A model generated the notes under the pieces. It had not been told where the DNA came from and did not search any database. It saw only the letters and a list, made by a program, of their open reading frames with translations. A DNA stretch of 64,000 nt, taken from assembly GCA_965222935.1 (NCBI GenBank), contig CBDCVA010000001.1:196093-260092 (forward strand). Reading direction: 5' to 3'. Source of the DNA: Candidatus Latescibacterota bacterium. GTDB taxonomy: Bacteria > Latescibacterota > CBDCVA01. Shown here in pieces: positions 38,807 through 62,124 of this stretch; position 1 is the first letter of the stretch, and each line of letters begins with the position of its first letter. Made by a program: the position numbers and the translations under genes.

Positions 38807-38931
38807 AGCGAGCGGATGTTGAGTGTCATAGTTGCGCGCGGCTGCGAGCCGTGTAGCGCTGGCCTCCGCATGAGACATGGAAACATCCACCGTGTCCGGC
38901 GTCAATAACGCGGGAGACCAAGGTATATGAT

Positions 38932-40653
38932 ATGAGACAGTCCGACCTGCTTGTGCGGATCGGGGGCGAAGGCGGTGAAGGCGTCATCTCTTCGGGTGAG
39001 ATCCTCACCAAGGCGATGGCGCGGGCCGGCTGGAACGTGTTCACGTTTCGCACCTATCCCGCTGAGATTCGCGGGGGTGTGGCGATGTTTCAGTTGCGCG
39101 TGGCCTCGCAACCCATCTACTCGCAGGGCGGTAAAGCCGACCTGTTCATTGCCTTCAATGACGAGGCTCTGGAGCATTACCTTCCCGAACTGCGTCCCGG
39201 TGGTACGCTGTTGTTCGATCCTGAGCAGGCACACGCCCCTGAAGAGGGCGCCTACCACGTCCTTCCAGTGCCCCTCAACCGGCTGGCGCGCGAGGCCGGC
39301 AGTGTCCTGACCAAGAACATCGTCGCTGTCGGCGCGCTTTCCAAGGCGTTCGACGTGGACCCGGAGATCTTCCGTCAGCTCATCCGGGACCAGTGGCTGC
39401 GCAAGGGCGAGCGGGTCGTCGAGATGAACTACCGCGCGCTCGAAGTCGGTCGCCAGGCCGTCGTCGAGGCAGGGGGCGCCGAGGGAGTCGCTCTGGAAGC
39501 TGCCCCGCCCAACGGCGAGGAGCTCATGATCATCAGCGGCAACCAGGCGGTGGGCTTGGGCGCTATCGTTGCCGGCTGTCGCTTCTGCGCCGGATATCCC
39601 ATCACGCCTGCGACGCCGCTGTTTGAGTTTCTGATTGCAGAATTGCCGAAGTTCGGGGGAGGGACGTTCCAGGCCGAGGACGAGATGGCGGCACTGGGAG
39701 CGTGCCTGGGCGCCTCGTTCTCGGGCATCAAGGCGATGACTTGCACGTCGGGTCCTGGCATTTCACTGATGAGCGAACTCATCAACCACGCCTCGATGCT
39801 TGAGCTGCCCGTCGTCATCGTGGACGTCCAGCGCGCAGGACCCTCGACGGGCATGCCCACCAAGACTGAGCAGGGTGATCTGAAGTTCGCCATCTACGGC
39901 ACGACGGGGGAATCCCCCAGGATCGTGCTGGCTCCCACGTCGGTGGAGGACTGCATTTATCAGACGGTCCGCGCGTTCAACCTGAGCGAGCGTTATCAGA
40001 TGCCGGCCATCATCCTCAGCGACCAGGCGATGGCATATAGGACCCAGAACGTGAAGTTGCCCGACCTGTCTATGATCGATGTGGATGAGCGGATCCTGGC
40101 CGGCGATGGCGAGCTTAACGATTACAGGCGCTTCAGGCTTACCGAAACGGGCGTCTCGCCGATGACCGTTCCGGGGATGGAGGGCGGCGCCTATTTGGCG
40201 ACAGGTCTCGAGCACGACGAGACGGGCGCGCCCAAGTACACTCCTGAAGCTCACAAGACGATGACGGCCAAGCGGTTTCGAAAGCTGACTACACTCGCCG
40301 ACGAACTCGCCTCGGATCCCCAGCCGTACTACGGTTCAGATAAGGCTCGCATCGGCGTGATCGGCTGGGGCTCAACCGAAGGCGCGATCCGCGAGGCTCG
40401 ATACAGGGCGGAGGAGGCCGGCATTCCGATCAAGCACTTGCATCCGAGGGTGGTCTCTCCGCTGCCGGAGAAGCGCATCGCTGAGTTTCTCCGGGGACTA
40501 GAGACGATCATCATCCCCGAGGAGAACTTCACCGGGCAGTTCGCGCATTTCGTAAAGGCGAAGTTCGGGATCAGGCCCATAGAAGTTCACAAGGCGGAGG
40601 GGATCCCTCTCACACCCGAAGAAATCTTAGACGCGATTGAGGAGCATGCCTAA
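38932..40653 (+). CDS. 2-oxoacid:ferredoxin oxidoreductase subunit alpha with fused gamma domain (set 1)
   Basis: N-terminal gamma-type domain (GGEGGEGVISSGEIL); the alpha domain belongs to the pyruvate/2-oxoglutarate ferredoxin oxidoreductase family (KorA-like). Confidence 0.85.
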   Translation: MRQSDLLVRIGGEGGEGVISSGEILTKAMARAGWNVFTFRTYPAEIRGGVAMFQLRVASQPIYSQGGKADLFIAFNDEALEHYLPELRPGGTLLFDPEQAHAPEEGAYHVLPVPLNRLAREAGSVLTKNIVAVGALSKAFDVDPEIFRQLIRDQWLRKGERVVEMNYRALEVGRQAVVEAGGAEGVALEAAPPNGEELMIISGNQAVGLGAIVAGCRFCAGYPITPATPLFEFLIAELPKFGGGTFQAEDEMAALGACLGASFSGIKAMTCTSGPGISLMSELINHASMLELPVVIVDVQRAGPSTGMPTKTEQGDLKFAIYGTTGESPRIVLAPTSVEDCIYQTVRAFNLSERYQMPAIILSDQAMAYRTQNVKLPDLSMIDVDERILAGDGELNDYRRFRLTETGVSPMTVPGMEGGAYLATGLEHDETGAPKYTPEAHKTMTAKRFRKLTTLADELASDPQPYYGSDKARIGVIGWGSTEGAIREARYRAEEAGIPIKHLHPRVVSPLPEKRIAEFLRGLETIIIPEENFTGQFAHFVKAKFGIRPIEVHKAEGIPLTPEEILDAIEEHA

Positions 40654-40655
40654 CT

Positions 40656-41537
40656 ATGACCGCTCTCGTGGCAACACCGGCTCCGACCCGAAGTCCTGCC
40701 AGCTATAAAAGCGATCTCAAGCCCATCTGGTGCCGCGGTTGCGGCGATTTCGGGGCGCTCTCAGCCTTCTATAAGGCGCTCTCCACACAAAACGTCGATC
40801 CCAACGATCTCGTCTTCGTCAGCGGCATCGGCTGCTCCGGGCGTTTCCCCCACTTCGTTGAGACCTACAGCTTTCACTCGACCCACGGCAGAGCGCTTCC
40901 CGTGGCCACGGGGCTCAAGGTGGCGCGCCCGGAGCTTCCGGTGGCGGTGGTAGGCGGCGACGGCGACGGACTGGCCATCGGCATGGGGCACATCCCTCAC
41001 GCCGCACGGCGCAACGTTGACATCACTTACGTCCTTCTGGACAACGAGATCTATGGGCTGACCAAGGGACAAAGCTCGCCTACGACGCCCTTCGGCGCCC
41101 ATACCCCCGGGGGCATGGGGGCAACGAAGGATGGGCATTGGGAAGAGAGGCTGGACCCGTTGGCCATCTACATTGCCTCGGGGGCGACCTTCGTCGCCTG
41201 CGGCTTCACCGGCGTTCCAGCCCAACTGGCCGGCATCTTCTCGGCGGCGCTGGCCCACAAGGGCTTTTCCATCGTTCATACGTACAGCCCGTGCACGACC
41301 TTCAATCACTTTCTGACCTTCGACAGCATCAAGGAGCGCCTCGGCCAGATCCCCGAGGACCACGACCCCACCGACCGGCTGGCTGCGATGCGCTATGCCC
41401 TCGATCACGAACAGATCTGGACCGGCATATACTACCAGGTCGAGCGGCCGACGCTGGATGGCATTGTGGATGCCCAGCGGCGCGAGGTCGGGGATCGGCG
41501 GACCGCGCTCTTGGACCTCTTGAGGGGGTTTGAATAG
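40656..41537 (+). CDS. 2-oxoacid:ferredoxin oxidoreductase subunit beta, TPP-binding (set 1)
   Basis: CPGCGDFG motif and TPP-binding GDGD...N pattern (KorB-like). Confidence 0.85.
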   Translation: MTALVATPAPTRSPASYKSDLKPIWCRGCGDFGALSAFYKALSTQNVDPNDLVFVSGIGCSGRFPHFVETYSFHSTHGRALPVATGLKVARPELPVAVVGGDGDGLAIGMGHIPHAARRNVDITYVLLDNEIYGLTKGQSSPTTPFGAHTPGGMGATKDGHWEERLDPLAIYIASGATFVACGFTGVPAQLAGIFSAALAHKGFSIVHTYSPCTTFNHFLTFDSIKERLGQIPEDHDPTDRLAAMRYALDHEQIWTGIYYQVERPTLDGIVDAQRREVGDRRTALLDLLRGFE

Positions 41538-41645
41538 CCGAAGGAGCCGGGTGCGTGAGTTGTGCGGCATCGCGCCTGGCGGGTGCCTGGCATACGTAGT
41601 GGCGAATATACAAATCATGGCGAAACGATCCCGGAGTCGAGTCCT

Positions 41646-43409
41646 ATGCGAGAAGAACTAACGCTTGGAATTGGCGGCGCTGCAGGCGAAGGTATCGGAG
41701 CACCTGGCAATGCGGTAGGTCAGCTCTGCGCCCGCCTCGGGTTGCACGTGTACTCCTATAACGAGTACCAGTCCTTGGTCAAAGGCGGGCACATCTGGCT
41801 GCGCATTCGGATGTCCAAGACGAAGGTCGAAAACCATGGCGATCACCTCAACGTCGCGCTCGCCTTCAATCAAGACACCCTCAATCGGCATGCTCAAGAG
41901 GTAGAGCCGGGCGGGGCCGTCATCTTTAACGGGGGCAAGCTCAGCCTCGAGGGACTGCAACTTCAAGAGGACGTGACGCCTATCCCGCTCCCTATCACGG
42001 AGATTATGGAACCCTTTGGACGGCTACCGGCGATCATGCAGAACACGGTCATGATTGGCGCTGTCATGTGGGTCTTGGGCCTCGATTTCCCGGTCCTCAA
42101 GGAGTCCATCCGCGAAGAGTTCCTGGGACGCGGCAAGGGCGAGGAGGTGGCTAACACCAACGCCGATCTAGCTCAGGCGGGGTACGACTATGCCCGGTCT
42201 CAGTATCCGCACCTGGGCGATGACTGGGGGGAGTTCTCACGGGTGGGCAGGGCGGTCGTCACCGGCAATGAGATGTTCGGTTTCGGCGCCTTGGCCGCGG
42301 GATGCGCTTACTACACAGCTTATCCGATGACGCCAGCCTCGGGCATCCTTCATTTGCTGGCCAAGTACGGGCCGCGCCACGGGATGGTAGTGAAGCAGAT
42401 GGAGGACGAGATCGCTGTGCTCAACTCGGCCATCGGTGCTGGCTTCGCGGGAGTGAGAGCGATGTGCGGCACCTCCGGCGGCGGGTTCGCCTTGATGACG
42501 GAGGCCGTGGGCATGGCGGGGATGACAGAGACGCCAGTCGTGATCGTGGAATGCCAGCGCGGCGGCCCGTCCACGGGGCTACCTACCAAGACCGAGCAGG
42601 GCGACCTCAATCAGGCCTACGGGGCCTCTCAGGGTGATTACCCCCGTGTGATCTTTGCTCCCACCGACGCGATCGACTGCTTCAATGCGATCCCCGAAGC
42701 CTTCAACCTGGCCGAGCGCTGGCAGATCCCCGTGATCGTGTTGTCGGACCTCTATCTCTCCGAGCATAATGAGACGATCGACCCCGAGGCCGTGAACTTC
42801 GCGGTCGAGATTGATCGCGGCGAGATTGTCAGAGAGCTTCCGCCCGAGAACGGCTATCTACGTTTCCGCCATACCGCCTCGGGTGTGTCGCCGCGCGTGT
42901 TGCCCGGGACCCTGGGTGGCGTCCATACCACGGCCACGGACGAGCACGATCAGCGCGGCGCCCTCATAAGCGATGAGTACACCAATCCGCCCGAGCGCAT
43001 CAAGATGATGGACAAGAGGATGCGGAAGATGGAGGGTATTTTACGCGAGGTGCCTCCGCCCGTCTTGGAGGGCCCTGCAGAGGCGGATGTCACGCTGATC
43101 GGGTGGGGATCCACAACGGGGCTGATTCGAGAGGCCATCGGGCAACTCGCGGAGACCGGCGTGACCGCGAACCATGTGCAGTTCCGCTACCTCGTTCCCT
43201 TCCATACCGACGAGGCCCGGGTGATTCTGGAGCGGGCACGCTTCACCATCATGGTGGAGGTGAATTACAGCGGACAGTTCGAGCGTCATCTGCGCGCCGA
43301 GACGGGTTTGAGCGTGGACGCTCACGTGCGGAAGTACGATGGCGAGCCCATGGAACCGGCTTACCTAAAGGACCGAATACTGGAGGTGCTGAATGTCCCC
43401 GTCAGTTGA
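41646..43409 (+). CDS. 2-oxoacid:ferredoxin oxidoreductase subunit alpha with fused gamma domain (set 2)
   Basis: Paralogue of 38932-40653 (IGGAAGEGIGAPG... gamma domain, alpha domain); ATG at 41646. Confidence 0.85.
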   Translation: MREELTLGIGGAAGEGIGAPGNAVGQLCARLGLHVYSYNEYQSLVKGGHIWLRIRMSKTKVENHGDHLNVALAFNQDTLNRHAQEVEPGGAVIFNGGKLSLEGLQLQEDVTPIPLPITEIMEPFGRLPAIMQNTVMIGAVMWVLGLDFPVLKESIREEFLGRGKGEEVANTNADLAQAGYDYARSQYPHLGDDWGEFSRVGRAVVTGNEMFGFGALAAGCAYYTAYPMTPASGILHLLAKYGPRHGMVVKQMEDEIAVLNSAIGAGFAGVRAMCGTSGGGFALMTEAVGMAGMTETPVVIVECQRGGPSTGLPTKTEQGDLNQAYGASQGDYPRVIFAPTDAIDCFNAIPEAFNLAERWQIPVIVLSDLYLSEHNETIDPEAVNFAVEIDRGEIVRELPPENGYLRFRHTASGVSPRVLPGTLGGVHTTATDEHDQRGALISDEYTNPPERIKMMDKRMRKMEGILREVPPPVLEGPAEADVTLIGWGSTTGLIREAIGQLAETGVTANHVQFRYLVPFHTDEARVILERARFTIMVEVNYSGQFERHLRAETGLSVDAHVRKYDGEPMEPAYLKDRILEVLNVPVS

Positions 43410-44274
43410 AATCCTGCCTGTCAAGGATTATAAAGGACTGGTAGACCCCGACTGGTGCCCCGGCTGCGGCGACTTCGGGGTACTCCGGGCGCTGCAAACG
43501 GCCGCCAGCCAGTTGGCGATCCACCCTCATCGGCTCGTGGCCGTCTCCGGCATAGGCTGCTCTTCGAATCTGCCCGGGTTCATTCACGCGTACGGTTTTC
43601 ACAGCCTGCACGGTCGTGCGCTCCCCGTAGCAACGGGCATCAAGCTGGCCAACCCCGATCTCAACGTCGTTGTGGCCACGGGTGACGGGGATGGCTACGG
43701 GATCGGCGCGGGTCACTTCGTCCACATCCTGCGGCGGAACGTGGACATGACCATGATCGTGATGAACAACCAGATCTATGGGCTCACCACCGGCCAGGTG
43801 TCGCCCACGAGCGAGAAGGGAATGAAGAGCAAGTCCACCTTGGGCGGCACGTTGGAGGAAGCGTTCAATCCGCTGGCTCTTGCGCTTGCGGGCGGCGCCA
43901 CTTTCGTTTCCCGCTGCTTCTCGGGTGATGCCAAGCACATGGCCCAGGTGCTCAAGCGCGCTATCAGCCACAGGGGCTTTAGTCTGGTGGACGTGTTCAG
44001 TCCCTGCGTCACCTACAACAAGATCAACACTTACGCGTGGTTCAAGGAGCGCGTCTACAAGCTCGAAGAGGCCGACCACGATACCAGCGCCTTTCAAACA
44101 GCGATGCTCAAGGCCATGGAGTGGGGGCATGAGATCCCGCTCGGGGTCTTCTACGAGCGCGAAGCGCCCACCTACGAGGATGAGGAACCAGCCCTGGCGG
44201 ACGGTCCGCTGCCTGAACGCGAACTGGGCATGACCCAGGAGCAGGGCATGGCGGTGCTCAAGGACTTCATGTAG
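43393..44274 (+). CDS. 2-oxoacid:ferredoxin oxidoreductase subunit beta, TPP-binding (set 2)
   Basis: CPGCGDFG plus TPP motif; overlaps the preceding alpha gene. Confidence 0.85.
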   Translation: MSPSVEILPVKDYKGLVDPDWCPGCGDFGVLRALQTAASQLAIHPHRLVAVSGIGCSSNLPGFIHAYGFHSLHGRALPVATGIKLANPDLNVVVATGDGDGYGIGAGHFVHILRRNVDMTMIVMNNQIYGLTTGQVSPTSEKGMKSKSTLGGTLEEAFNPLALALAGGATFVSRCFSGDAKHMAQVLKRAISHRGFSLVDVFSPCVTYNKINTYAWFKERVYKLEEADHDTSAFQTAMLKAMEWGHEIPLGVFYEREAPTYEDEEPALADGPLPERELGMTQEQGMAVLKDFM

Positions 44275-44377
44275 GAGTACCGATTAGCACGGTAGCGCTT
44301 GAGGCCCACTGCCCGGCCACGGGGGTGGGTCTTCGCTTCTCAAGGTATCCGATTGTAGCAGTGGGGGGGGGCGTGCG

Positions 44378-45061
44378 ATGCTGACCATTCGTTTTCTGGG
44401 CCACGCGGCTTTCACCTTCTCCGACGGCTCCCACGAGGTGCTGGTTGACCCGTTCCTCACCGACAACCCGGTGGCGGCGGCTAAGCCCGACGACCTCTCG
44501 CCGGACGCGATCCTGCTGACGCACGGCCACAACGATCACCTCGGTGACGCCGTCCCGATCGCCAAGCGGGCGAATGCCACCATCGTCGCGCCCTTTGAAC
44601 TGGCTGTTTTCTGCGAGCGCCAGGGCTGCGTTACCCACCCCATGCACATCGGCGGCGCGCACGCGTTCGATTTCGGTCGCGTCAAGTTCGTGCCGGCATG
44701 GCACGGCTCCGCCTTCATCGGCGACGACATCGTCTACACGGGCAACCCCACCGGGATCATTCTGACGATGGGCGGCATCTCCGTCTATCATGCCGGCGAC
44801 ACGGGGCTCTTCGGGGATATGCGTCTGATCGGCGAACGGGAGACGCCGGATGTCGCGCTGCTGCCCATCGGCGACAACTTCACGATGGGCGTCGAGGACG
44901 CCGAACAGGCGGCGCGATGGGTGGGAGCGAGGCGCGTCATTCCTATGCATTACAATACATTTGACCTGATTAGTGCAGACCCGCAGGACCTCGCAAGGCG
45001 CCTGGAGGGCAGCGGGATCGAGGTTCTCCCCCTAGCACCGGGTGAATCGCTTCAGGTGTGA
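44378..45061 (+). CDS. UPF0173-type metal-dependent hydrolase (MBL fold)
   Basis: LTHGHNDH motif and UPF0173 family architecture; preceded by a G9 homopolymer. Confidence 0.7.
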   Translation: MLTIRFLGHAAFTFSDGSHEVLVDPFLTDNPVAAAKPDDLSPDAILLTHGHNDHLGDAVPIAKRANATIVAPFELAVFCERQGCVTHPMHIGGAHAFDFGRVKFVPAWHGSAFIGDDIVYTGNPTGIILTMGGISVYHAGDTGLFGDMRLIGERETPDVALLPIGDNFTMGVEDAEQAARWVGARRVIPMHYNTFDLISADPQDLARRLEGSGIEVLPLAPGESLQV

Positions 45062-45555
45062 GACGACTGCGCCTGACACCCGACCAGAAGCGCATCTTAT
45101 GCTTTCTACCACCGACGGGTGAGACGGAAGAGATCAACGATCTGATCGGCGAGATTGCCGAGCTTCCTCGCTCGCTTCTAGGCCAGTGGTTCGATGAGCG
45201 CCTGCTCGATCCCGAGCAACGGCGGGCGCACCATCAGGCGGAACGCTGTGTCCGCCGCGTCATCCGCCAGCTCTTCGAGCGAGGCCTCGTGGACGTGGGC
45301 AACGACGCGACTTACGGCGAAGGCGTTCGCCGGTTCCACAGGCGCATGTGGGAGGCTCAGCAGGACCCCGGCTACTGGAAGCAGAAAGAGGCGACCCCGT
45401 CCGCGGAGCAGCTTGAGCGCTCCATGGCGCTTCACCAGGAGCTAATGGAGACGCGAAAGTTCAACGTTGCCAGGGAGGCGCTGCGAGGTGACGTGCGGAC
45501 CGTGGGCTTGACTGCGGTGGGCTGTCAGTGGCGCGCCGCACAGGCAGCGGGTTAG
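45058..45555 (+). CDS. Hypothetical protein
   Basis: 165 aa; GTG start overlapping the hydrolase stop (GTGA); no recognisable domain. Confidence 0.4.
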   Translation: MRRLRLTPDQKRILCFLPPTGETEEINDLIGEIAELPRSLLGQWFDERLLDPEQRRAHHQAERCVRRVIRQLFERGLVDVGNDATYGEGVRRFHRRMWEAQQDPGYWKQKEATPSAEQLERSMALHQELMETRKFNVAREALRGDVRTVGLTAVGCQWRAAQAAG

Positions 45556-45570
45556 CGCCATCCGAAGCCT

Positions 45571-45630
45571 GATGAGAAGTACATCCTGAGCCCGTCGAGG
45601 GATGAGCGCCTCTTAGTTGCCGGGATCAAG
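45571..45630 (+). repeat. 60-bp direct repeat copy A (~87% identical to 52093-52152)
   Basis: gatgagaagtacatcctgagcccgtcgagggatgagcgcctcttagttgccgggatcaag versus gatgagacgtacatcctgggcccgtcgaaggataagtgcctcctagtcgccgagatcgg. Confidence 0.6.
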
Positions 45631-45635
45631 TCTGC

Positions 45636-45725
45636 GGTTCCCTCACCCGCGCGGGGATAACGCCATTACTGGGATTGGTGCCCCAATCAGCCACCCGGTT
45701 TCCCCGCCGGCGAGGGAAGCCGTGG
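45636..45725 (+). CRISPR. Degenerate type I-E-like CRISPR mini-array (2 repeats of 29 nt flanking one 32-nt spacer)
   Basis: R1 GGTTCCCTCACCCGCGCGGGGATAACGCC (45636-45664); spacer attactgggattggtgccccaatcagccaccc (32 nt); R2 GGTTTCCCCGCCGGCGAGGGAAGCCGTGG (45697-45725). The 61-nt period and palindromic CCCCGC..GCGGGG core match the E. coli-type I-E repeat family. Confidence 0.5.
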
Positions 45726-45773
45726 CGCTCAGAAACCACCATTGATTCCATGCCAAAGAGGGAAACCTGAAGG

Positions 45774-46826
45774 ATGATGAACCGACGCAGCTTTCTGAAG
45801 AAGGCAGGGGCGGCTAGCGCCGTGGGCGCGGCTGCGATTGCGGCCCCGGCGGTGCACGCGCAATCGAAGACAAAGATCAAGTGGCGCCTCCAGACCTATG
45901 CGGGGCCCGCCCTCGCCGAGCACGTCATCAAGCCGTCCATCGATTCGTTCAACAAGGTGGCGAACGGCGAGATGGAAGTCGGACTCTACTTCGCGGACCA
46001 GCTCGTGCCGACCGGCGAGCTTTTCCGGGCCATGCAGCAGGGCACCATCGACGCGGTGCAGTCGGACGACGACTCGATCGCAGCGCCGGTGGACATCTCC
46101 GTATTCGGCGGCTACTTCCCGTTCGCCACTCGGTACAGCCTCGACGTGCCAGCGCTCTTCCACCAATGGGGGCTGAACGAGATCTGGGCGGAAGCCTACG
46201 GTGAAATCGAAGGGGTCACGTGGCTCAGCGCCGGCGCCTGGGACCCGTGTCACTTCAATACCGTCAACCCCATTCGCAGCCTCGAGGGTCTCAAGGGCCT
46301 TCGCGTGTACACCTTCCCTACCGCCGGCCGCTTCCTGTCGCGCTTCGGGGTGGTGCCGGTGACTCTGCCCTGGGAGGACATAGAAGTCGCGGTGCAGACC
46401 GGGGAGTTGGACGGCATGGCTTGGTCCGGTATCACCGAGGACTACACGGCAGGCTGGGCCGACCTCACCAACTACTTCCTCACCAACAGCATCTCGGGCG
46501 CGTGGTGCGGGTCGTACTTCGCCAACTCTGAGAAGTGGGACGCCGTGCCCGCTCACCTTCAGGAGTTGTTCCGGCTCTGCATGGACAGCTCGCACTACTA
46601 CCGCCAGTACTGGTACTGGGGCGGCGAGGCGAAGCTCCGCGTCGACGGCACCAAGCTGGAGCTGACCTCGATCCCAGACGAGGAGTGGGCGAAGGTGGAG
46701 GCCGAGGCGGTCACGTTCTGGGACGAGATCGCGGCCGAGACCCCGCGCACCGCCAAAGTGGTGGGCATCCTGCGGGCCTACAACGAGGCCATGAGCAAGG
46801 CCGGCCGGCCCTACCGGTATTCCTGA
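45774..46826 (+). CDS. TRAP transporter substrate-binding protein (DctP family), Tat signal; no adjacent DctQM genes
   Basis: RRSFLKKAGAASAVGAAA twin-arginine signal; DctP-family pattern. Confidence 0.8.
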   Translation: MMNRRSFLKKAGAASAVGAAAIAAPAVHAQSKTKIKWRLQTYAGPALAEHVIKPSIDSFNKVANGEMEVGLYFADQLVPTGELFRAMQQGTIDAVQSDDDSIAAPVDISVFGGYFPFATRYSLDVPALFHQWGLNEIWAEAYGEIEGVTWLSAGAWDPCHFNTVNPIRSLEGLKGLRVYTFPTAGRFLSRFGVVPVTLPWEDIEVAVQTGELDGMAWSGITEDYTAGWADLTNYFLTNSISGAWCGSYFANSEKWDAVPAHLQELFRLCMDSSHYYRQYWYWGGEAKLRVDGTKLELTSIPDEEWAKVEAEAVTFWDEIAAETPRTAKVVGILRAYNEAMSKAGRPYRYS

Positions 46827-46897: not shown

Positions 46898-47400
46898 ATG
46901 AGGCGCAGCGGTCGTCCCCTCGTTTTCGCCGTTCCGACGCGTACCGCCACCAGGCAGCTTCATGGTCGCGTCAATGAGGCGCTACGCCGGGTGCTCGGTG
47001 CGGATACGCCTGAAGCCGTGCTGGCCATTCCCGGGATGCTGCGCGCGAAGGAGTTAGGGGGCCAACGTCTGTCCCATTGGCGCGTAAAGTGGGACGACGA
47101 TGCAACATTGGTCCCGCAACGATGGGCCGCCGAGCACGCGACGCGATTTCTGGCGGTACCTGTTGGCGTCGGTACTGTGGATCAGACGATGCTTGCCGGA
47201 CTTGGGTGAAATATGCGCCTTTGCGGAGCAGCGCGCTCAATCACAGTCTTCTGGTGATCGACGAGGTTCATGTTTCCGACGCCTACATGGCCGAGATTCT
47301 GGCGCGACTCCTGGATGGGCACCTCGCCACCGGAGGATACGCGATGCTGATGTCTGCGACACTGGATTCGCGACCGGGGGATGCGCCGACGCCCGCTGAA
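46898..47400 (+). pseudogene. cas3: Internal fragment of a Cas3-like SF2 helicase (motifs Ia-II-III only), frameshifted near 47205; lacks the HD domain, Walker A and C-terminal domains
   Basis: Frame 1 (46898-47209) reads ...LVFAVPTRTATRQLHGRV...GTVDQTMLAGLG*; the +1 frame (47209-) reads KYAPLRSSALNHSLLVIDEVHVSDAYMAEILARLLDG...AMLMSATLD. DEVH followed by (A/V)xDAYM fits my recollection of the type I-E Cas3 motif II; SAT is motif III. Truncated at both ends by neighbouring genes. Confidence 0.45.
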
Positions 47401-47414: not shown

Positions 47415-48464
47415 TCACCCAGCAGCGTCCGGAGGCCGGTTCCCCGAGAATACGCTGATTATGCGGTCGACCGAGACCGCGCCGACCGCCGCCCCCGTTA
47501 CGTCCACCACCCGGACCTCCTTGCCCGGCGCTGATGTTGCCAGCGGTAAGGCGTCCTCCAGAGAGGTGCCGACCGGGCAATCCGGCCCGTCGAGTTCGGG
47601 CTTGACGGGCGCCATGATCGAATCGACGCGGATGACACGGCCCCGGTTGATGTTCTTGATGAACGCGGAGATGTAGGCATCGGCCGGCCGCAGGACGATG
47701 TCTTGGGAGTCGCCGTTCTGCACGATCTCGCCGTCGCGCAGAATCGCGATTCGGTCGCCGAGTTCGATTGCCTCTTCGAGATCGTGGGTGACGAACACTA
47801 TGGTCTTGTTCAGATCTCGTTGCAACTCCAGCAGCAACGCCTGCATGTCCGACCGGATCAGCGGATCGAGGGCGCTGAACGGTTCGTCCATCAACAGTAT
47901 CTCGGCGTCGGTCGCCAGCGCGCGGGCCAGTCCGACCCGCTGCTGCATGCCGCCCGAGAGGTGGTGGGGATAGGTTGCTTCGTAACCCGAAAGCTCGACC
48001 CGATCGATCCATTGCCCGGCGCGGCCGGCACGCTCGACGCCGGCGACGCCCTGCATTTCCAGACCGTAGCCGACGTTCTCCATCACGGTCCGGTGGGGCA
48101 GCAGCGCAAAACGCTGGAACACCATGCTGACCCGGTGCCGGCGGAGATGCTGGAGGGCGGCGCGGTCGAGTGCGAGCACGTCCTCGCCGCCGATCCGGAC
48201 CTCGCCCTCGGTCGGATCGATCAGACGGTTGACGTGGCGGATCAGCGTCGATTTGCCTGACCCGCTGAGACCCATGATCACCTGGACATGGCGCGGCGCG
48301 ATGCTCAGGTTGATGTCGCGCAGGCCCAGCACGTGGCCATGGGTTTCCAGCAAGTCCTTTTTGTCAACGCCCTCGTGGACGAGCGGCATCATGGCCGCGG
48401 GATCGGCGCCGAAGACCTTGTAAAGCCCGCGGATTTCGATTCTGTCGCCGGTCGTCATAGTCAT
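47415..48464 (-). CDS. proV: Glycine betaine/proline ABC transporter ATP-binding protein with C-terminal CBS pair (ProV/OpuAA)
   Basis: True start MTMTTGDRIEIRGLYKVFG at comp. 48464; Walker A GLSGSGKST, LSGGMQQRV signature, CBS domains. The 592-aa track ORF carries a ~240-aa artefactual N-terminal extension. Confidence 0.85.
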   Translation of the reverse strand: MTMTTGDRIEIRGLYKVFGADPAAMMPLVHEGVDKKDLLETHGHVLGLRDINLSIAPRHVQVIMGLSGSGKSTLIRHVNRLIDPTEGEVRIGGEDVLALDRAALQHLRRHRVSMVFQRFALLPHRTVMENVGYGLEMQGVAGVERAGRAGQWIDRVELSGYEATYPHHLSGGMQQRVGLARALATDAEILLMDEPFSALDPLIRSDMQALLLELQRDLNKTIVFVTHDLEEAIELGDRIAILRDGEIVQNGDSQDIVLRPADAYISAFIKNINRGRVIRVDSIMAPVKPELDGPDCPVGTSLEDALPLATSAPGKEVRVVDVTGAAVGAVSVDRIISVFSGNRPPDAAG

Positions 48465-49342
48465 GCTTGCCGCGCGGTCTGGATGCGCCGGCCGTAGCTC
48501 TGCGTGATCCTGTCGAACACGATCGCCAGCCCGACGACGGCAGCGCCGTTGAACAGGCCGAGCGCGAAATACTGGTTGGTGACCGCCTGGAGCACCGGTT
48601 GACCGAGGCCCTTGACGCCGATCATGGAGGCGATCACCACCATCGAGAGCGCCATCATGATGGTCTGGTTCACCCCGGCCATGATGTTGGGAAGCGCGAG
48701 CGGCAACTGGACGCCGAAGAGCCGCCGCCACGTGTCGGCGCCGAACGCGTCGGCGGCTTCCAGCACTTCCTTGTCGACCAGCCGGATGCCCAGATTGGTG
48801 AGCCGGATGACCGGCGGCACGGCATAGATCACCACTGCGATCAGCCCCGGTATCTTGCCGAGGCCGAACAGCATGACCACCGGGATTAGATAGACGAAGA
48901 TCGGCATCGTCTGCATGATGTCGAGGATCGGCGTCATGATCGCCTGCACCCGGTCCGAACGCGACATCGCGATCCCGAGCGGGATGCCGATCATGATGGC
49001 AAAGAGCGTGGAGACCAAGATGATGACGAGGGTCCGCATCATATTGTCCCACATGCCGAGAAAGCCAATCGCGAAGAAGGCGATGCCGACGCCGGCGGTC
49101 AGCCGCCTGCTCCGGCTGGCGAAGAAGCACAGCCCCGCGATGGAGGCGATAACCAGCCACCAGGGCGTACCGAGCAGAAACCGCTCGAACCACACCAGAG
49201 TGTAGAGCAGCGGATCGAAAAAGCTCTCGATGGTGTCGCCGTAGGACCTAGAGAAGGCGCGGTACGCCGCGTCGAACGACTTGTGGATAGCCCGCAACGA
49301 GCCTTGCTCGAGGGTCGGGAATTCCACAATCCATTCGATCAC
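48461..49342 (-). CDS. proW: Glycine betaine/proline ABC transporter permease (ProW/OpuAB)
   Basis: 293-aa polytopic permease with an EAA-like loop; stop overlaps the proV start. Confidence 0.85.
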   Translation of the reverse strand: MIEWIVEFPTLEQGSLRAIHKSFDAAYRAFSRSYGDTIESFFDPLLYTLVWFERFLLGTPWWLVIASIAGLCFFASRSRRLTAGVGIAFFAIGFLGMWDNMMRTLVIILVSTLFAIMIGIPLGIAMSRSDRVQAIMTPILDIMQTMPIFVYLIPVVMLFGLGKIPGLIAVVIYAVPPVIRLTNLGIRLVDKEVLEAADAFGADTWRRLFGVQLPLALPNIMAGVNQTIMMALSMVVIASMIGVKGLGQPVLQAVTNQYFALGLFNGAAVVGLAIVFDRITQSYGRRIQTARQA

Positions 49343-49451
49343 GATTCAGTCTCCCCGATAAATCTCGGCTTGCACGAATTCCACATACCCCGCCGCTGGC
49401 GCCCGCGAAGGGGCCGAGGCTGGATGGGTCCGCGCCGGCCGTCGGACGGGC

Positions 49452-50444
49452 TTAGAGACCCGCTTTCACCTTCGCAGTGACATCCGCGGGCACCCAGGCG
49501 CTCCAGACCGCCTCGTGGTTTTTGAGAAAGTACTCGGCGGTCTCCCGAGGAGTCGCCTGATTCTCGTCTTTCCAAGCCAGCAGGCCCTTCAGGAACGCGT
49601 TCGACCAGGAGACGTTAGAGACGAACTCGTACGCGTCGGGCACCCGGTTCGCGAAGCTGGACGTGACTACCGACATCACCATCGATTTCGGATACATGTT
49701 CGGCTTCGGGTCGGCGCAATCCTTGTCTACGACGCACGGCCAAGTCGCGGGATCGTACGTCATCCCACCAAGCTTGACCATCGGGTACTTGCTGAGCAGG
49801 GTCGTCGGCGCCCAATAGTAGGCGAAGATCGACTGCTTGCGCTCATAGGCATGGGCAATCGCGCCCGCCAGCCCCTCGCCGGACCCGGGGTCGAACAGGG
49901 TGAACCCGGCCTCTTTCATGCGGTAGGCCTTGTAAAGGTTGCCGTTGATGATCTGGCAGGCCCAGCCCGACGGGCAGTCATAGAACCGGCCCATGCCCGG
50001 CTCCTCCTTGTCGGGAAACAGGTCGGGCCGCTCGAGGACCGCCTGCAGGGTGGTCAACTCCGGGTTGTCCTTCACCACATAGTCCGGAACCCACCAGCCC
50101 TCTTCGCCGCCATCCGACAGGATCTCGCCGGCAATCTTGAGACGGCCTTCGGCGACCGCCTTCTCGACGACCTCGCGCACCGAATTGATCCAGATCTCGG
50201 GCGCGATATCGGGCTCGTTCTTTTCCGTCATGGAGGTGACCGTCGGCACGGTATCACCGGGCACGAGCTCCGATTCGCAACCGTAACCCTTGGCCAGGAT
50301 GATATCCTCGACGTGGGCCGCGACCGCGGCTGAGGCCCAAGTCATCTCGGCAATCGTCACCTTGCCGCAGGCCACATCGGCACCCCATGCAAGGCCAGGA
50401 GCCATCAAAGCCGCCACGAGTAGTAATCCTGATCTCTTCACCAT
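49452..50444 (-). CDS. proX: Glycine betaine ABC transporter substrate-binding protein (ProX/OpuAC)
   Basis: Start MVKRSGLLLVAALMAPGLAWGAD (signal peptide) at comp. 50444; ProX-family pattern. The 60 N-terminal residues of the track ORF are a TTG-initiated artefact. Confidence 0.8.
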   Translation of the reverse strand: MVKRSGLLLVAALMAPGLAWGADVACGKVTIAEMTWASAAVAAHVEDIILAKGYGCESELVPGDTVPTVTSMTEKNEPDIAPEIWINSVREVVEKAVAEGRLKIAGEILSDGGEEGWWVPDYVVKDNPELTTLQAVLERPDLFPDKEEPGMGRFYDCPSGWACQIINGNLYKAYRMKEAGFTLFDPGSGEGLAGAIAHAYERKQSIFAYYWAPTTLLSKYPMVKLGGMTYDPATWPCVVDKDCADPKPNMYPKSMVMSVVTSSFANRVPDAYEFVSNVSWSNAFLKGLLAWKDENQATPRETAEYFLKNHEAVWSAWVPADVTAKVKAGL

Positions 50445-50518
50445 CGAACTTACCTCCCTTGGTTTAAGACACCGCTGCGTGGATCCACCGGCACGGCGAA
50501 CCCCGTTCCTCTCCCATC

Positions 50519-50541
50519 TATAATATACCGCAATATACCGC
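50519..50541 (-). promoter_or_regulatory. Candidate promoter/operator upstream of proXWV: TATAAT-like box plus tandem ATATACCGC x2 (10-bp period)
   Basis: ctataatATACCGCaatATACCGCgag sits 75-100 nt upstream of the proX start; the tandem repeat is seen in sequence. Confidence 0.3.
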
Positions 50542-50578
50542 GAGCCTCCCAATGGCAATCCTGGGTTCGCGCCCTGTC

Positions 50579-50607
50579 GGTTCCCCCGCCCGCGCGGGGA
50601 TAGCCCC
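50579..50607 (+). repeat. Solitary type I-E-like CRISPR repeat (GGTTCCCCCGCCCGCGCGGGGATAGCCCC)
   Basis: Best-preserved copy of the repeat family at 45636 and 52057, with the same palindromic core. No neighbouring repeat at a 61-nt period. Confidence 0.5.
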
Positions 50608-50650
50608 AGGATGGGTGTCCACAAGGGACGCCCCTACAGGACAGGAGATG

Positions 50651-51475
50651 CTACGGCTTGCGTCCTATCGCCTCTCCCCAGGCGAGGGCGGCGAATGCAC
50701 CGGGGGTATCCTTCCACTGATCGAGCATACGGCGCCAGTCATCGAACTGCTCTTGACTTGCCAGCCCGTGTTTCGTGGCCGCTTCCACGGTATCGGGAGA
50801 GAAGAACCAGCCGATGACGAAACCGTGAAGAAAGTCGATGTCCCCGGTCGTGCTGTAGGATTCAAATGAAGTGCTCGCGTGGATGTCCGAGAACCCGGCT
50901 TCGAGAAACGTACGCTTCAGTTCCTTCCCCATCTGGGGGTGGCCCCCGTTGGCCTCGAGAAGGTTCGAGAACGTCGTCCACGCACCGCGGAGATCGTCGA
51001 GTTCGGGTTCGAAAAACGACGAGGCGCTAATCAGTTCCCGGCTGGAGAGGATACCCCCGGGCTTCAACACCCGCTTCACCTCGGCCAGGGCAGCCTGCGT
51101 GTCCGGAACGTGCATGAGCAGGGCGTGGCAGTGGGCGACATCGAACGAGCCGTCTTCATAGGGAAGATCGGTCACATCGCCTGTCTGGAATACCGCGTTG
51201 TCGTGCCCGCCGGCCGACGCGGCGGCCCGGGCCATCTCGATCTGCGACGCTTCCATCTCGATGCCGTGCAACTCTCCGGGTTCCACCGCTTTTGCGAGCC
51301 CCACCGAAATCGTTCCGGGACCGCAACCGAAGTCGAGAACGCGGAGACCGGGCTCGAGGTACGGGAGCAGATGCGCGGCATTGGTCGTTGCGCTCCGGCG
51401 GCTGAGCAGTTTCTGAAACTCGTCACTGTAACCCATGGTGTAGGTGGGCGTATCCGGGGTCCTGTTGTCAGTCAT
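50651..51475 (-). CDS. Class I SAM-dependent methyltransferase
   Basis: Motif I VLDFGCGPGTIS and post-I/II motifs; 274 aa. Confidence 0.75.
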   Translation of the reverse strand: MTDNRTPDTPTYTMGYSDEFQKLLSRRSATTNAAHLLPYLEPGLRVLDFGCGPGTISVGLAKAVEPGELHGIEMEASQIEMARAAASAGGHDNAVFQTGDVTDLPYEDGSFDVAHCHALLMHVPDTQAALAEVKRVLKPGGILSSRELISASSFFEPELDDLRGAWTTFSNLLEANGGHPQMGKELKRTFLEAGFSDIHASTSFESYSTTGDIDFLHGFVIGWFFSPDTVEAATKHGLASQEQFDDWRRMLDQWKDTPGAFAALAWGEAIGRKP

Positions 51476-51502
51476 GGGTCGCTCCTTATGCGTGCTGCCG
51501 GC

Positions 51503-51703
51503 TCATGATCGTCGGGGCGCCCGCACCTCGACGATGCCGCACGCCTGCGTACCCTGCTCACGGAAGGCGCGGTTCACGCGCACCGGTGTCAGCGCGATCC
51601 GGCCGTTCTCTGCGGTGACGTCGAAATACTCGGTTCTCTTCACGGCCGGGATCAACGCCTTCGGCAGGGTCAACGGGTTCTTGGAGGTCGGTTTGGGGAG
51701 CAT
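51503..51703 (-). CDS. Small SpoVT/AbrB-like (VapB/MazE-type antitoxin-like) DNA-binding protein, orphan
   Basis: 66 aa; MLPKPTSKNPLTLPKALIPAV...GRIALTPV fits the swapped-hairpin K.TSKGQ.T.PK... pattern. The rest of the 233-aa track ORF is noise. Confidence 0.35.
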   Translation of the reverse strand: MLPKPTSKNPLTLPKALIPAVKRTEYFDVTAENGRIALTPVRVNRAFREQGTQACGIVEVRAPRRS

Positions 51704-52056
51704 GGCAAGCGCTCCGATTGAGAATATAAGCGAACCATAGGTCCTTACAAATTCCACGACAGGAATGGCGTCGATAGCCGCCTCCGCGTACGAGCGCCGC
51801 GCCGTGGGCGCTCGTACTGCGGCACTGCGTCGGGCCGCTTCTTGGCGCCCTCGCCAATGATCGCCTGACGACATCGTCCTCTCCGATGCGAGCTCGACGG
51901 CATACGATGGCTGTCGGTCGGTTTGCTCGGCGGAGTTCATATCCTTCTGACCGTCCGAGGCGCCCTGTCGGCGATGTGTGCTTCCTCGGCGAACTGGGCA
52001 TAAGGCGACTGGTTCGGGTTGATGGAGATCAGGCGCAGTCGGTGCGGGCCTGTCAT

Positions 52057-52085
52057 GGTTTCCCCGCCCGCACGGAGATAGACCC
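52057..52085 (+). repeat. Degenerate type I-E-like CRISPR repeat (GGTTTCCCCGCCCGCACGGAGATAGACCC)
   Basis: 24/29 identical to the repeat at 50579; directly followed by copy B of the 60-bp direct repeat. Confidence 0.4.
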
Positions 52086-52092
52086 TGACCGT

Positions 52093-52152
52093 GATGAGAC
52101 GTACATCCTGGGCCCGTCGAAGGATAAGTGCCTCCTAGTCGCCGAGATCGGA
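52093..52152 (+). repeat. 60-bp direct repeat copy B
   Basis: See copy A at 45571-45630. Confidence 0.6.
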
Positions 52153-52227
52153 GATGTGTCCTTGCGTGGGGTGGTTGAGGCGCGTATTTTTCGGAGCGTG
52201 ACAAGCGTGTGTGCTCGATGGCGGCGA

Positions 52228-52815
52228 ATGGGCTGCTTCGGCAGGTGGTGGGTTACGCTGGTTACCTCCATTGGGGTTTTGGCGATGGCGTGTGCATCTG
52301 AGCGTGAGCGGGCCGAGATCGGTGACGCCGGTGAGGTGGCAATCCTTGAGACGTCGGCGGGGCGGATCGTCTTGCAGTTCCACGAGGAAGATGCCCCGCG
52401 CCACGTCGGAAACTTCAAGAAGCTCGCCCGGTCGGGTTTTTATGACGGCACGTACTTTCACAGGGTTATCCCGGGTTTTATGGTCCAGGGGGGCGACCCC
52501 AACACTAAGGATGACGACCGTACAAACGATGGGCAGGGCGGCCCCGGATACGCGATTGAGGCGGAGTTCAACGCCCGCAAGCATGTGCGTGGCACCCTTT
52601 CGATGGCGCGCTCGCGCGGCATTCACACGGCCGGATCACAGTTCTTCATCTGCGTGGCGAATGCGCCCCATCTCGACGGTCAGTACACGGCGTTCGGGCA
52701 CGTGCAGGAGGGCATGGAGACCGTGGACGAGATCGTCAGCGTGCCGCGCGACCGTCGGGATAATCCTCTGGAGCCGATTTACCTAGAGCGGGTCACCGTT
52801 ACGAGCTCGCCTTAA
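52228..52815 (+). CDS. Peptidyl-prolyl cis-trans isomerase, cyclophilin type (secreted/lipoprotein)
   Basis: Start at MGCFGRWWVTLVTSIGVLAMACAS (signal/lipobox-like); cyclophilin motifs (FHRVIPGFMVQGGD, SMAR, GSQFFI). The upstream 114 codons of the track ORF overlap the repeat region and are not coding. Confidence 0.8.
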   Translation: MGCFGRWWVTLVTSIGVLAMACASERERAEIGDAGEVAILETSAGRIVLQFHEEDAPRHVGNFKKLARSGFYDGTYFHRVIPGFMVQGGDPNTKDDDRTNDGQGGPGYAIEAEFNARKHVRGTLSMARSRGIHTAGSQFFICVANAPHLDGQYTAFGHVQEGMETVDEIVSVPRDRRDNPLEPIYLERVTVTSSP

Positions 52816-52822
52816 AGCGCAG

Positions 52823-53650
52823 ATGGCAGCGGCGATGAGCTATTATTACGGGCGGTCGGGTATGACCTTCGGCGGCGGAGCACTGACCCCAGTGGTCAAG
52901 CTCCTTTTGATCGCCAATGCCGCGATCTTCCTCTTGGAGTGGGTGTTCGATTACGGCCTTATCGTCCACTATTTTGGCGTCACACCGGCTCTGGTTCTTG
53001 GCCGCGGCATGCTCTGGCAGGTCGTCACCTACATGTTCCTACATGGTGGCGTGTGGCACCTGGCCTTCAACATGCTGTGGCTGTGGATGTTCGGCTGTCG
53101 CATCGAGCGCGCCTGGGGTTCGCGCGATTTCCTGAAGTATTACGCCGTCACCGGCATCGGTGCGGGCCTTGCGACGGTCATCCTCTCGCCTGGTTCGGTC
53201 GCGCCCACCATCGGCGCCTCGGGAGCGGTCTTCGGCATCCTGATGGCCTATGCGTTGATGTTCCCCGAGGACCTGGTCTGGATCTTCGGCATCATTCCCC
53301 TTAAGGCCAAGCACTTGGTGCTGATCATCGGCGGCATTGAGCTCCTTCAGACCGTCCAGTACTCGCAATCGGACGGCATCGGACGTTTCGCGCACCTCGG
53401 CGGCATGGCCGTCGGCTACGTGTACCTGAAGAAGTTCTGGCGGTTGACCGTCTTCTTCGAACGCTGGCGCCACAGGCGCGCCCGGCATCACCTACGGGTC
53501 ATCCGGCGGCAGGAGGTCGAGGGTGAGAACGTGCGCGAGGTCGTGGACGCGATCTTGGACAAGATCGCACGCGAAGGGGCGAGCAGTCTGACCGAGCGCG
53601 AGCGCCGCATCCTCGACGACGCCAGCACCTTCTATCGCGAGTCCGGGTGA
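52823..53650 (+). CDS. Rhomboid family intramembrane serine protease
   Basis: GASGAVFG catalytic Ser motif, conserved His in a distal TM helix, cytoplasmic C-terminal extension. Confidence 0.75.
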   Translation: MAAAMSYYYGRSGMTFGGGALTPVVKLLLIANAAIFLLEWVFDYGLIVHYFGVTPALVLGRGMLWQVVTYMFLHGGVWHLAFNMLWLWMFGCRIERAWGSRDFLKYYAVTGIGAGLATVILSPGSVAPTIGASGAVFGILMAYALMFPEDLVWIFGIIPLKAKHLVLIIGGIELLQTVQYSQSDGIGRFAHLGGMAVGYVYLKKFWRLTVFFERWRHRRARHHLRVIRRQEVEGENVREVVDAILDKIAREGASSLTERERRILDDASTFYRESG

Positions 53651-53680
53651 AACAACTCCTTCGGATGAGACCTTGCTGAG

Positions 53681-54604
53681 TTGGCCCCGGCCGCCTTGCC
53701 CGGCCCGCATCTCCACAGCGAAGTTGGTCGTCCGGATCCGGTGGCTGTTCCCCTTATGAACGCGGCCGACCACGGGCGACGTTTTCCGCTCTACGGCTGG
53801 GCCGGTCTCGTGGCCATCATCCTGGCCGAGGTGTTGCTAGCCATGGGGGTCCGGTTCATCGGGCTCTGGATGACGCCGATCTGCTGGTACGGTTACATCC
53901 TCCTCGCCGATGGGCTCGTCGAGAAGCTGCGCGGCGGCTCAATGATCACCTCGTGGCGACGGCCATTTCTGTGGATGTTCCCGATTTCCGCCGGTCTTTG
54001 GGTCATCTTCGAGTTCTACAACCTTTTCCTTGACAACTGGCACTACGTTGGTCTTTACGAGTCGCGCTTGTTGCGCTACACGGCCTATGCCCTGGCGTTT
54101 GCCACCATCACCCCCGGCATCATGGAGACGCGCGACCTCGTTACCGCCCTCACCGGTTGGGACCGCTGGCGAACGCGCCCGTGGGTCGTTTCCGACGACG
54201 CCATCCGCGTTTTCATCGTGATGGGCCTGGCCATGGTGATTCTGCCCTTGGCCTATCCCTCTCGCTATGTGTTCGCGCCCGTCTGGGGGGGGTTCGTCCT
54301 TTTGTGCGACCCCCTGAACTATCTTTTGCGCCGACCCTCCTTACTGGGCGATCTCGCCGAGGGCAAACCGGGGCGGATAGTTGCGCTTTTGGTCGCGGGC
54401 GGCGTATGCGGCTTTCTGTGGGAGTTCTGGAACTATTGGGCGGTCACCAAATGGATCTACACCGTGCCCTTCACGGAGAACATCAAGATCTTCGAGATGC
54501 CGCTTCTGGGCTTCGTCGGCTTTTTCCCATTCGCCTGGGAGTGCTTCTGCATGTATCACCTGGTCGCTGGCGCTCGGGATTTCACCCTTCCTCAGGTGAG
54601 ATGA
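53681..54604 (+). CDS. Hypothetical polytopic membrane protein
   Basis: Multiple hydrophobic helices rich in Trp/Phe; real start probably internal (MNAADHG, ~53756). Confidence 0.4.
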   Translation: MAPAALPGPHLHSEVGRPDPVAVPLMNAADHGRRFPLYGWAGLVAIILAEVLLAMGVRFIGLWMTPICWYGYILLADGLVEKLRGGSMITSWRRPFLWMFPISAGLWVIFEFYNLFLDNWHYVGLYESRLLRYTAYALAFATITPGIMETRDLVTALTGWDRWRTRPWVVSDDAIRVFIVMGLAMVILPLAYPSRYVFAPVWGGFVLLCDPLNYLLRRPSLLGDLAEGKPGRIVALLVAGGVCGFLWEFWNYWAVTKWIYTVPFTENIKIFEMPLLGFVGFFPFAWECFCMYHLVAGARDFTLPQVR

Positions 54605-54688
54605 CTCGATTGGTCGTCGACCGCGAATGCAGCGGGGCATAGCGCCGCTTAGGGCTTCGCCAGAACCCATTTCGCTCCCTTCCCGTCG

Positions 54689-57061: not shown

Positions 57062-57100
57062 CGTGGCGTCAGAAAATCTCACGCTAAGCCCCAAAAGGTG

Positions 57101-57130
57101 TTGACAAGACGGCGCCGCATGGCTTTTAAT
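57101..57130 (+). promoter_or_regulatory. Candidate promoter for hup (TTGACA-18nt-TTTAAT) with strong SD AAAGGAGAGGAGAG
   Basis: Seen in sequence upstream of the HU start. Confidence 0.35.
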
Positions 57131-57173
57131 AGTGGGAAGTGCATATAGTTCACTCCGGGAAAGGAGAGGAGAG

Positions 57174-57446
57174 ATGACGAGAGACGACGTCATCGCCCAC
57201 GCTGCTGAAGATGCTGGGATTCCCAAGACACAGGCTGCCGCCGTTCTTAGCTCGGTCCTCGACAGCATCAGCGATGCGCTGAAGGAGGGCGACAAGGTAA
57301 CCTTCGTGGGTTTTGGTGCCTTCTCGGTGAGCCAGCGTGCGGCGCGAATGGGCCGTAATCCGCAGAGCGGGGCTTCGATCCAGATTCCCGCATCCCGTGT
57401 GCCGAGGTTCAAGGCGGGGAAGAGGCTCAAGTCGGCTGTGCAATGA
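57174..57446 (+). CDS. hup: DNA-binding protein HU
   Basis: 90 aa from MTRDDVIAHAAEDAGIPKTQAAAVL..., with the HU/IHF arm motif GRNPQSGASIQIPA; the track ORF has a 14-aa extension. Confidence 0.85.
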   Translation: MTRDDVIAHAAEDAGIPKTQAAAVLSSVLDSISDALKEGDKVTFVGFGAFSVSQRAARMGRNPQSGASIQIPASRVPRFKAGKRLKSAVQ

Positions 57447-57526
57447 GTGAAGCCTTTGGCGTCGACGCTGAACCTCAAAGGGTCACACCAGCAACGACGT
57501 CACGGGTCACGCATTCAGTTGAAGTA

Positions 57527-57562
57527 CAGGGCAGGGGGCGTCCGCTCCCTGCCCCGCATTTT
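57527..57562 (+). terminator. Rho-independent terminator after hup
   Basis: Stem gggcaggg/ccctgccc with a 10-nt loop, followed by cgcatttt. Confidence 0.55.
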
Positions 57563-57582
57563 GGCCCGCACCGGCGGGTTGG

Positions 57583-62099: not shown

Positions 62100-62124
62100 T
62101 CCCTCGTCTGGGGGAAAGCTCCCG

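Follow-up and report, generated by a model that had tools for sequence, protein, structure and literature searches.

Whether a single pair of degenerate repeats can be recognized as the trace of a CRISPR array is the question raised by positions 45636–45725 of the 64,000-nt stretch of DNA analysed here (hereafter, the window). A preliminary description had placed there a mini-array of type I-E, composed of two 29-nt repeats (R1 and R2) and one 32-nt spacer. Its coordinates and the 61-nt distance between repeat starts (29 + 32) are right: both repeats lie on the same strand and form one interval only. The flagged stretch is located inside a 218-nt spacer region bounded by a 165-aa ORF on the left and by dctP, the gene of a TRAP-type solute-binding protein, on the right, and the following features can be defined:

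45058–45555: 165-aa ORF with no family match and with homologues in conspecific contigs only
45570–45627, + strand: first copy of element Y, a 58-nt GC-rich repeat just 5′ of R1; the hairpin of its core occupies 45584–45602
45636–45664, + strand: R1, GGTTCCCTCACCCGCGCGGGGATAACGCC, a CRISPR repeat of type I-E in degenerate form, agreeing with the array consensus at 25/29 positions
45665–45696, + strand: the only spacer, 32 nt, ATTACTGGGATTGGTGCCCCAATCAGCCACCC
45697–45725, + strand: R2 as originally claimed, GGTTTCCCCGCCGGCGAGGGAAGCCGTGG
45697–45708, + strand: the repeat-derived part of R2, a 12-nt stub, GGTTTCCCCGCC; the remainder, up to 45725, is dctP 5′ UTR

By itself, the R1/R2 pair is no better than chance. 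Aligned without gaps, the two sequences are identical at 16/29 positions, and 64 positions of the window equal this value at a spacing of 61, so that in a sequence of 64% G+C the pair alone could be dismissed. Standard repeat finders run on the window left it unreported. Several near-identical repeats with unique spacers, by which an array is recognized, are not what the site contains; it holds one full repeat and a 12-nt stub. The palindrome CCCCGC(N4-5)GCGGGG, described as conserved in both repeats, is intact in neither R1 nor R2. Counting gave one exact instance in the window, which by reading is a copy at 50579 (CCCCGC-CCGC-GCGGGG). As for the ends, said to be GGTT…GATA(A/G)C in both repeats, GATAAC is present in R1 and missing from R2.

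The decisive yardstick came from elsewhere. Metagenome contigs were scanned with GGTTYCCNNNCCCGCNCGGNGATA, which yielded 28 loci; several of these are clearly CRISPR arrays, in which unique spacers separate repeats that recur every 61 nt. The arrays of loci L015 and L028 are on contig MKWU01003322.1, with more than 50 repeats; the array of L022, on Ga0209020_1004036, has the same leader as the MKWU01003322.1 array, and the arrays of L013, L035 and L037 consist of close variants of the repeat. The repeat of the L015, L028 and L022 arrays is GGTTCCCCCGCCCGCGCGGGGATAGCCCC. Directly 5′ of the L015 array are genes for Cas3 (HD and helicase), Cse1/CasA (TIGR02547), Cas7e (PF09344), Cas6e (PF08798), Cas1 and an I-E-type Cas2 (PF09707), and this cas3-cse1-cas7e-cas6e-cas1-cas2 succession is a canonical type I-E operon. 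When both strands of the window were re-scored with the first 22 nt of the genuine-array repeat, the four best scores were those of copy B at 50579 (22/22), R1 (20/22), copy C at 52057 (19/22) and R2 (18/22), all on the + strand, whereas 0.1 sites per window with at least 18/22 matches are expected by chance. Over 29 nt, the scores against the array consensus are 29 for B, 25 for R1 (mismatched at positions 8, 10, 25 and 27), 25 for C and 18 for R2. All 18 matches of R2 fall within its first 22 nt, and part of this score is microhomology with the dctP 5′ UTR that replaces the 3′ half of R2. Judged by sequence, R1, R2, B and C belong to the repeat family of a bona fide I-E system, and the R1/R2 observation is real because of the outside consensus derived from genuine arrays, not because of the similarity between R1 and R2. 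The assignment to type I-E was thus correct, given that this repeat family adjoins a complete I-E cas operon and that a relic of cas3 is found downstream of R2. Even two copies that resemble each other as faintly as these (16/29) can thus be a genuine relic of CRISPR, the proof of which comes from outside the window, through real arrays of identical repeat, together with the cas3 relic close by.

Copies B and C were found by a degenerate pattern search:

50579–50607, + strand: copy B, GGTTCCCCCGCCCGCGCGGGGATAGCCCC, a perfect repeat of type I-E that stands alone, 29/29 to the L015, L028 and L022 arrays
52057–52085, + strand: copy C, GGTTTCCCCGCCCGCACGGAGATAGACCC, likewise solitary but degenerate, with 25/29 positions as in the consensus

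Copy C is closer (27/29) to the variant form GGTTT..GATAGACCC, which corresponds to the 5′ end of L013 repeats joined to a tail seen in L013 and L014, and its first 12 nt are identical to the R2 stub GGTTTCCCCGCC (12/12). No repeat-like sequence is present at ±61 or ±122 of either B or C. All four copies lie within 6.5 kb on one strand, and there is none in the other 57 kb of the window. An AT-rich patch 40 nt to the left of B (50520–50541), with a TATAAT hexamer and a tandem 2 × AATATACCGC, is unlike CRISPR leaders and probably serves opuAC, on the opposite strand, as promoter.

The genes between and around these copies are as follows:

46919–47373, + strand: cas3 pseudogene fragment with helicase motifs, about residues 336–487 of an 878-aa Cas3
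47415–50444, − strand: opuA-type glycine-betaine ABC operon encoding an ATPase, a permease and a binding protein (Pfam ABC_tran, BPD_transp_1, OpuAC)
50651–51475, − strand: SAM-dependent methyltransferase gene (Pfam), between copies B and C

The cas3 fragment lies 1.2 kb downstream of R1/R2, on the same strand. It was matched by the L015 Cas3 in a tblastn search of the window (69–77% identity, E-value 5e-53) in two pieces that are in different frames, and comprises about 150 codons, the frame shifting once near 47204. Within 46900–47400, the helicase motifs DEVH and SAT can be read, and the NCBIfam Cas3 models PRK09694 and TIGR01587 independently match 47206–47373. The other L015 Cas proteins gave no tblastn match in the window, about 65 ORFs from all over the window, scanned with Pfam, included no further cas gene, and the 10 kb further to the right encode polysaccharide export genes and no cas. 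The Pfam-scanned ORFs are housekeeping genes, including the dcw cluster, BamA/BamB, LptD, PriA and 2-oxoacid:ferredoxin oxidoreductases, and BamA/BamB, LptD and the dcw cluster suggest a host that is diderm and uncultivated. Read along the + strand from 45.6 to 52.1 kb, the order is Y, the R1-spacer-R2 stub, dctP, the cas3 fragment, the opuA operon (−), copy B, the methyltransferase gene (−), copy C, Y and the cyclophilin gene. Left of this region, at 38932–44274, are two adjacent paralogous pairs of 2-oxoacid:ferredoxin oxidoreductase alpha and beta genes, the beta-subunit genes of which share a 279-nt stretch of about 65% identical DNA.

The degeneracy of R2 is explained by the gene to its right:

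45710–46826, + strand: dctP segment, composed of 64 nt of native 5′ UTR and an ORF at 45774–46826 (Pfam DctP)

The closest homologues of this dctP, with 93% protein identity, are encoded on long-read metagenome contigs. In loci L041–L048, dctP stands behind DUF169-dctQ-dctM, and the window is 89% identical to these loci at the nucleotide level over 45710–46826. The dctP homology begins at about position 14 of R2 and stops at the dctP stop codon. The 3′ part of R2, GCGAGGGAAGCCGTGG, has its counterpart in GCGAGCGAAGCCGTAG of the original 5′ UTR of dctP, and the 3′ 16 nt agree with the region upstream of dctP in other genomes at 14/16 positions. Neither dctQ nor dctM is present in the window, the GC3 of dctP is 0.89 against 0.68–0.89 (mostly 0.70–0.86) for other window ORFs, and the gene looks recently acquired. 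R2 is therefore degenerate because the junction with the acquired dctP segment interrupts it about 12 nt from its start, and not, as had been supposed, through decay of an array from its trailer end. Both the repeat and the dctP donor have GCG.G.G.A at the junction, which suggests microhomology. The possibility that the spacer region is a structured 5′ UTR or riboswitch of dctP was considered and rejected, the folding of the whole region being no better than that of shuffled sequences (z −1.06 for the + and +0.17 for the − strand). A promoter and terminator scan of 45000–46200 found none; Rfam searches returned one tRNA and nothing else for the whole window at the gathering score, and only noise for 45400–45900 at E-values up to 10. 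The conspecific contigs L050–L053 all end 12 to 31 nt short of the dctP start, which suggests strain heterogeneity at the dctP junction.

The 60-mer upstream of R1 had been taken for the end of a leader. This stretch is instead the GC-rich 58-nt element Y, of which a second copy was identified:

52092–52149, + strand: second copy of element Y, directly 3′ of copy C and 5′ of the cyclophilin gene (true start at about 52228)

The AT-rich leaders of L015 and L013 resemble each other; Y is unlike them, and no similar leader is present upstream of R1, B or C. The two Y copies are 86% identical (self-BLAST, E-values 3e-9 to 4e-12) and bracket the whole remnant as a direct repeat. The core of Y, (GTAC)ATCCTGAGCCCGTCGAAGGA(T), has a 5-bp stem and an 11-nt loop, and a third core is located at 58063–58081, between dtd and maf, which makes 3 copies against 0.15 expected. 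The core is also found, sometimes in tandem, in MAGs of Chloroflexota, Syntrophaceae, Sphingomonadales, Ignavibacteriaceae and Dehalococcoidia (loci elsewhere: L001, L003–L006, L008, L011 and L012); according to the scan of the genome collection, other phyla share the short core only. It corresponds to no Rfam family, the core word, whether as peptide or as DNA, is absent from the literature searched, and Y is absent beside the other arrays fetched. Following the TAG of the 165-aa ORF, Y and R1 continue in frame to a TAA at 45658. A coding role of Y in this frame (DEKYILSPS..) was rejected, since by hand count only 2/8 differences between the copies are synonymous and since the second copy is upstream of the true cyclophilin start. 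Two further candidates were discarded, namely, a third degenerate repeat to the left of Y, the local alignment of which is non-significant (158/1000 shuffles score as well), and a similarity of the flanks of copy B to Y, which is not significant either. Y in L051–L053 carries two changes towards the other Y copy, which may be due to gene conversion.

The arrangement is fixed in the population and is no assembly artefact, because it recurs in conspecific contigs of other samples: L050–L053 are 99.4% identical to 38820–45762, L055 is 99.3% identical to 50093–61932, with B and C unchanged, and L054 is 100% identical to 51116–63650. Sequence data of this population are found under ERR13602196, ERR13605531, ERZ25072076 and JGI 3300038992 / 3300040731. 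The 5′ half of R1 (45636–45652) contains 5 variable sites in 13 nt, all of them transitions, at an overall divergence of 0.6%. None of 5 conspecific sequences shows a change in the spacer, in the 8-nt handle or in the R2 stub, although for the spacer this means little because the background divergence is only 0.6%. Pair 10–17 of the R1 stem is G-C in the consensus, G.U in L050 and A-U in L051–L053. The A-U pair resembles a compensated change, and the hairpin could have been under selection at the RNA level until recently, a weak indication, since the sequences are few and closely related.

A Cas6e hairpin had been predicted for the repeats, and copy B does form one (−15.4 kcal/mol, compared with −15.2 kcal/mol for the E. 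coli repeat), with a 6-bp stem and a 4-nt loop. R1 of the window does not: its fold (−7.5 kcal/mol, z +0.37) is no better than those of shuffled sequences, its stem contains a U.G pair and an A × C mismatch, and the canonical hairpin is not formed; its 5′ handle is kept at 6/8 positions. In copy C (−7.3 kcal/mol), two uncompensated stem mutations have abolished the hairpin. R1 of L051–L053 forms a stem-loop, and R1 of the L051 type folds in the canonical register (−10.9 kcal/mol). The fused R2, i.e. the 12-nt stub followed by dctP UTR, has a hairpin of −15.4 kcal/mol (z −2.1). No target of the spacer with at least 10/12 seed nt and a suitable PAM is present in the 64-kb window. Viral contigs contain no protospacer (two patterns, exact matching only) and no copy of the repeat, and in the plasmid collection the spacer region is unmatched and there is no close relative of the window.

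Taken together, these results make it highly probable that 45.6–52.1 kb is the remnant of a decayed type I-E CRISPR-Cas locus, ordinary and most likely non-functional. Rather than a self-standing mini-array, R1/R2 would be a fragment of this dismantled locus, the surviving stub of one of its arrays. The region would once have contained cas3, presumably together with Cascade genes and cas1-cas2, as well as CRISPR arrays, with an ancestral array repeat near GGTT(C/T)CCCCGCCCGCGCGGGGATAG(C/A)CCC. Illegitimate recombination may then have brought in the 1.1-kb orphan dctP, the left junction of which fell inside the second repeat, about 12 nt in, at the microhomology. The opuA-type ABC operon and the methyltransferase gene presumably replaced more of the locus, opuA occupying the place of the lost cas genes. 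The leftovers of this history would be R1, the spacer and the truncated R2, about 150 frameshifted cas3 codons, and the solitary B and C. We infer this order of events, and consider that the remnant most likely has no function today; at most, its transcript would be the 5′ leader of dctP. Three observations are less comfortable for this explanation. One is the apparently compensated stem pair 10–17 of R1. Another is the flawless state of copy B, slightly unexpected in a relic of some age; however, with about 2 derived changes in each other copy, the Poisson probability of no change in B is about 0.14, which is not significant. In addition, the search for relatives brought up none in which the ancestral locus is intact: outside its own population, the flanking MBL-fold gene is at most 65% identical to any homologue, and Candidatus Eisenbacteria are among the named best matches.

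The perfect state of B also bears on an alternative that we regard as unlikely, in which R1, the spacer and R2, or the solitary repeats, or both, form a functional orphan unit, transcribed, processed by Cas6e and loaded into a Cascade encoded elsewhere, either as a crRNA or as a regulator of the CreA/CreR type, which would repress a promoter to which it is partially complementary. The product would be a 61-nt species extending from AUAACGCC at 45657 to the R2 hairpin. Besides the perfect and canonically folding B, this reading could draw on the 6/8 handle of R1, on the strong hairpin of the fused R2, and on the variation of R1 pair 10–17 (G-C, G.U, A-U) next to an invariant spacer and handle; regulatory mini-arrays with degenerate repeats and like conservation are indeed known for type I-E (10.1101/2023.03.10.532045; 10.1101/2023.03.03.530964). 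Similarly to CreA/CreR, the site has the form degenerate repeat, spacer, degenerate repeat and is located upstream of (former) cas genes, conservation being highest towards the 3′ end of the first repeat and at the 5′ end of the second. Unlike in CreA/CreR, there are no Cascade genes in the window and no partially matching promoter target flanked by a PAM, and R2 owes its degeneracy to a recombination junction rather than to selective retention of a 3′ handle: it keeps 12 nt, its hairpin is completed by the dctP UTR, and thus its 3′ arm is not repeat sequence. Furthermore, no cas gene of the window is intact, only a piece of cas3 being left next to the site, the window R1, with its A × C mismatch, is unfolded, the spacer has no PAM-flanked seed match in 64 kb, no mini-array is present between the cas genes of the intact relative L015, and the invariance of the spacer means little at 0.6% background divergence. 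The broader proposal, that the stub and the solitary repeats are alive and are processed by an I-E system elsewhere, at least one of them regulating in the manner of a crRNA or providing a site of RNA processing in front of the acquired transporter genes, is equally improbable in our view. If true, it would account for both the perfect B and the apparently compensated stem pair of R1.

To two other explanations we give little credit. A dispersed GC-rich palindrome (REP/BIME- or MITE-like), acting as an mRNA stabiliser or as a protein-binding site, would fit the intergenic position and hairpin-like form of every copy, the two copies that adjoin the repeated element Y, and the possible mutual pairing of R1 and R2 (17 nt, 82% complementary). 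Such a reading is nevertheless very improbable, because arrays that adjoin a complete I-E operon are built of a 29-mer identical to copy B, all copies lie on one strand of the 6.5 kb at the cas3 remnant with none elsewhere in the 64 kb, R1 and R2 keep an exact 61-nt register, and plasmids and viral contigs have no match. Slightly less probable still is a neo-CRISPR, i.e. an off-target integration of one spacer by Cas1-Cas2 with duplication of a 29-mer target on both sides. The exact 29 + 32 geometry, the single spacer and the absent leader are what such an event would leave, but it would give two identical copies, whereas 14 of the last 16 nt of R2 agree with the sequence that precedes dctP in other genomes; moreover, the repeat belongs to the family of real arrays, and the cas3 remnant lies alongside.

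For the decayed-locus explanation, the nearest comparisons are with intact and with decaying systems. Repeat length, period and orientation relative to cas3 are those of type I-E arrays, and so are the 6-bp G+C stem, the 4-nt loop and the 8-nt 5′ handle AUA..CC of copy B, which has 22/29 positions in common, in a gapped alignment, with the E. coli K-12 repeat as given in the preliminary description. The flagged site differs from such arrays in consisting of one full repeat and a 12-nt stub that are not near-identical, in lacking a leader and intact cas genes, and in the loss of the hairpin from R1 and C. Orphan and degenerate arrays and decaying CRISPR-Cas loci with cas pseudogenes are well documented in Enterobacteria and others (PMC8616872). 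The window shares with them relic repeats beside a truncated, frameshifted cas3, the replacement of the cas operon and fixation in the population, and there is no essential difference; particular to it are the dctP junction inside a repeat and the uncultivated host lineage. The locus is a known kind of element that met a common fate and adds no new mechanism. It provides a small worked example of CRISPR-Cas loss, with cas genes giving way to metabolic and transport genes and one junction falling within a repeat, and 45.6–52.1 kb would best be annotated as a CRISPR-Cas remnant (a cas3 pseudogene and three repeat relics), not as an active array.

A few observations were made along the way. At the left end of the window, 3013–5576 encodes a cohesin/dockerin protein pair. 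Among the loci returned by the metagenome scan, L028 has at 3687–3747 (equivalent to L019 169 and L039 260) a repeat, a spacer and a degenerate repeat, 1.77 kb past its main array and following a phage tail S-type gene; this stray unit looks like an array split by insertion, parallel to the window. Locus L014 contains, on the minus strand (130 and 191 of the reverse complement), a two-repeat unit scoring 28/29 and 23/29, with a 32-nt spacer and no further repeat, the first repeat of which abuts CAT, as copy C does in the window.
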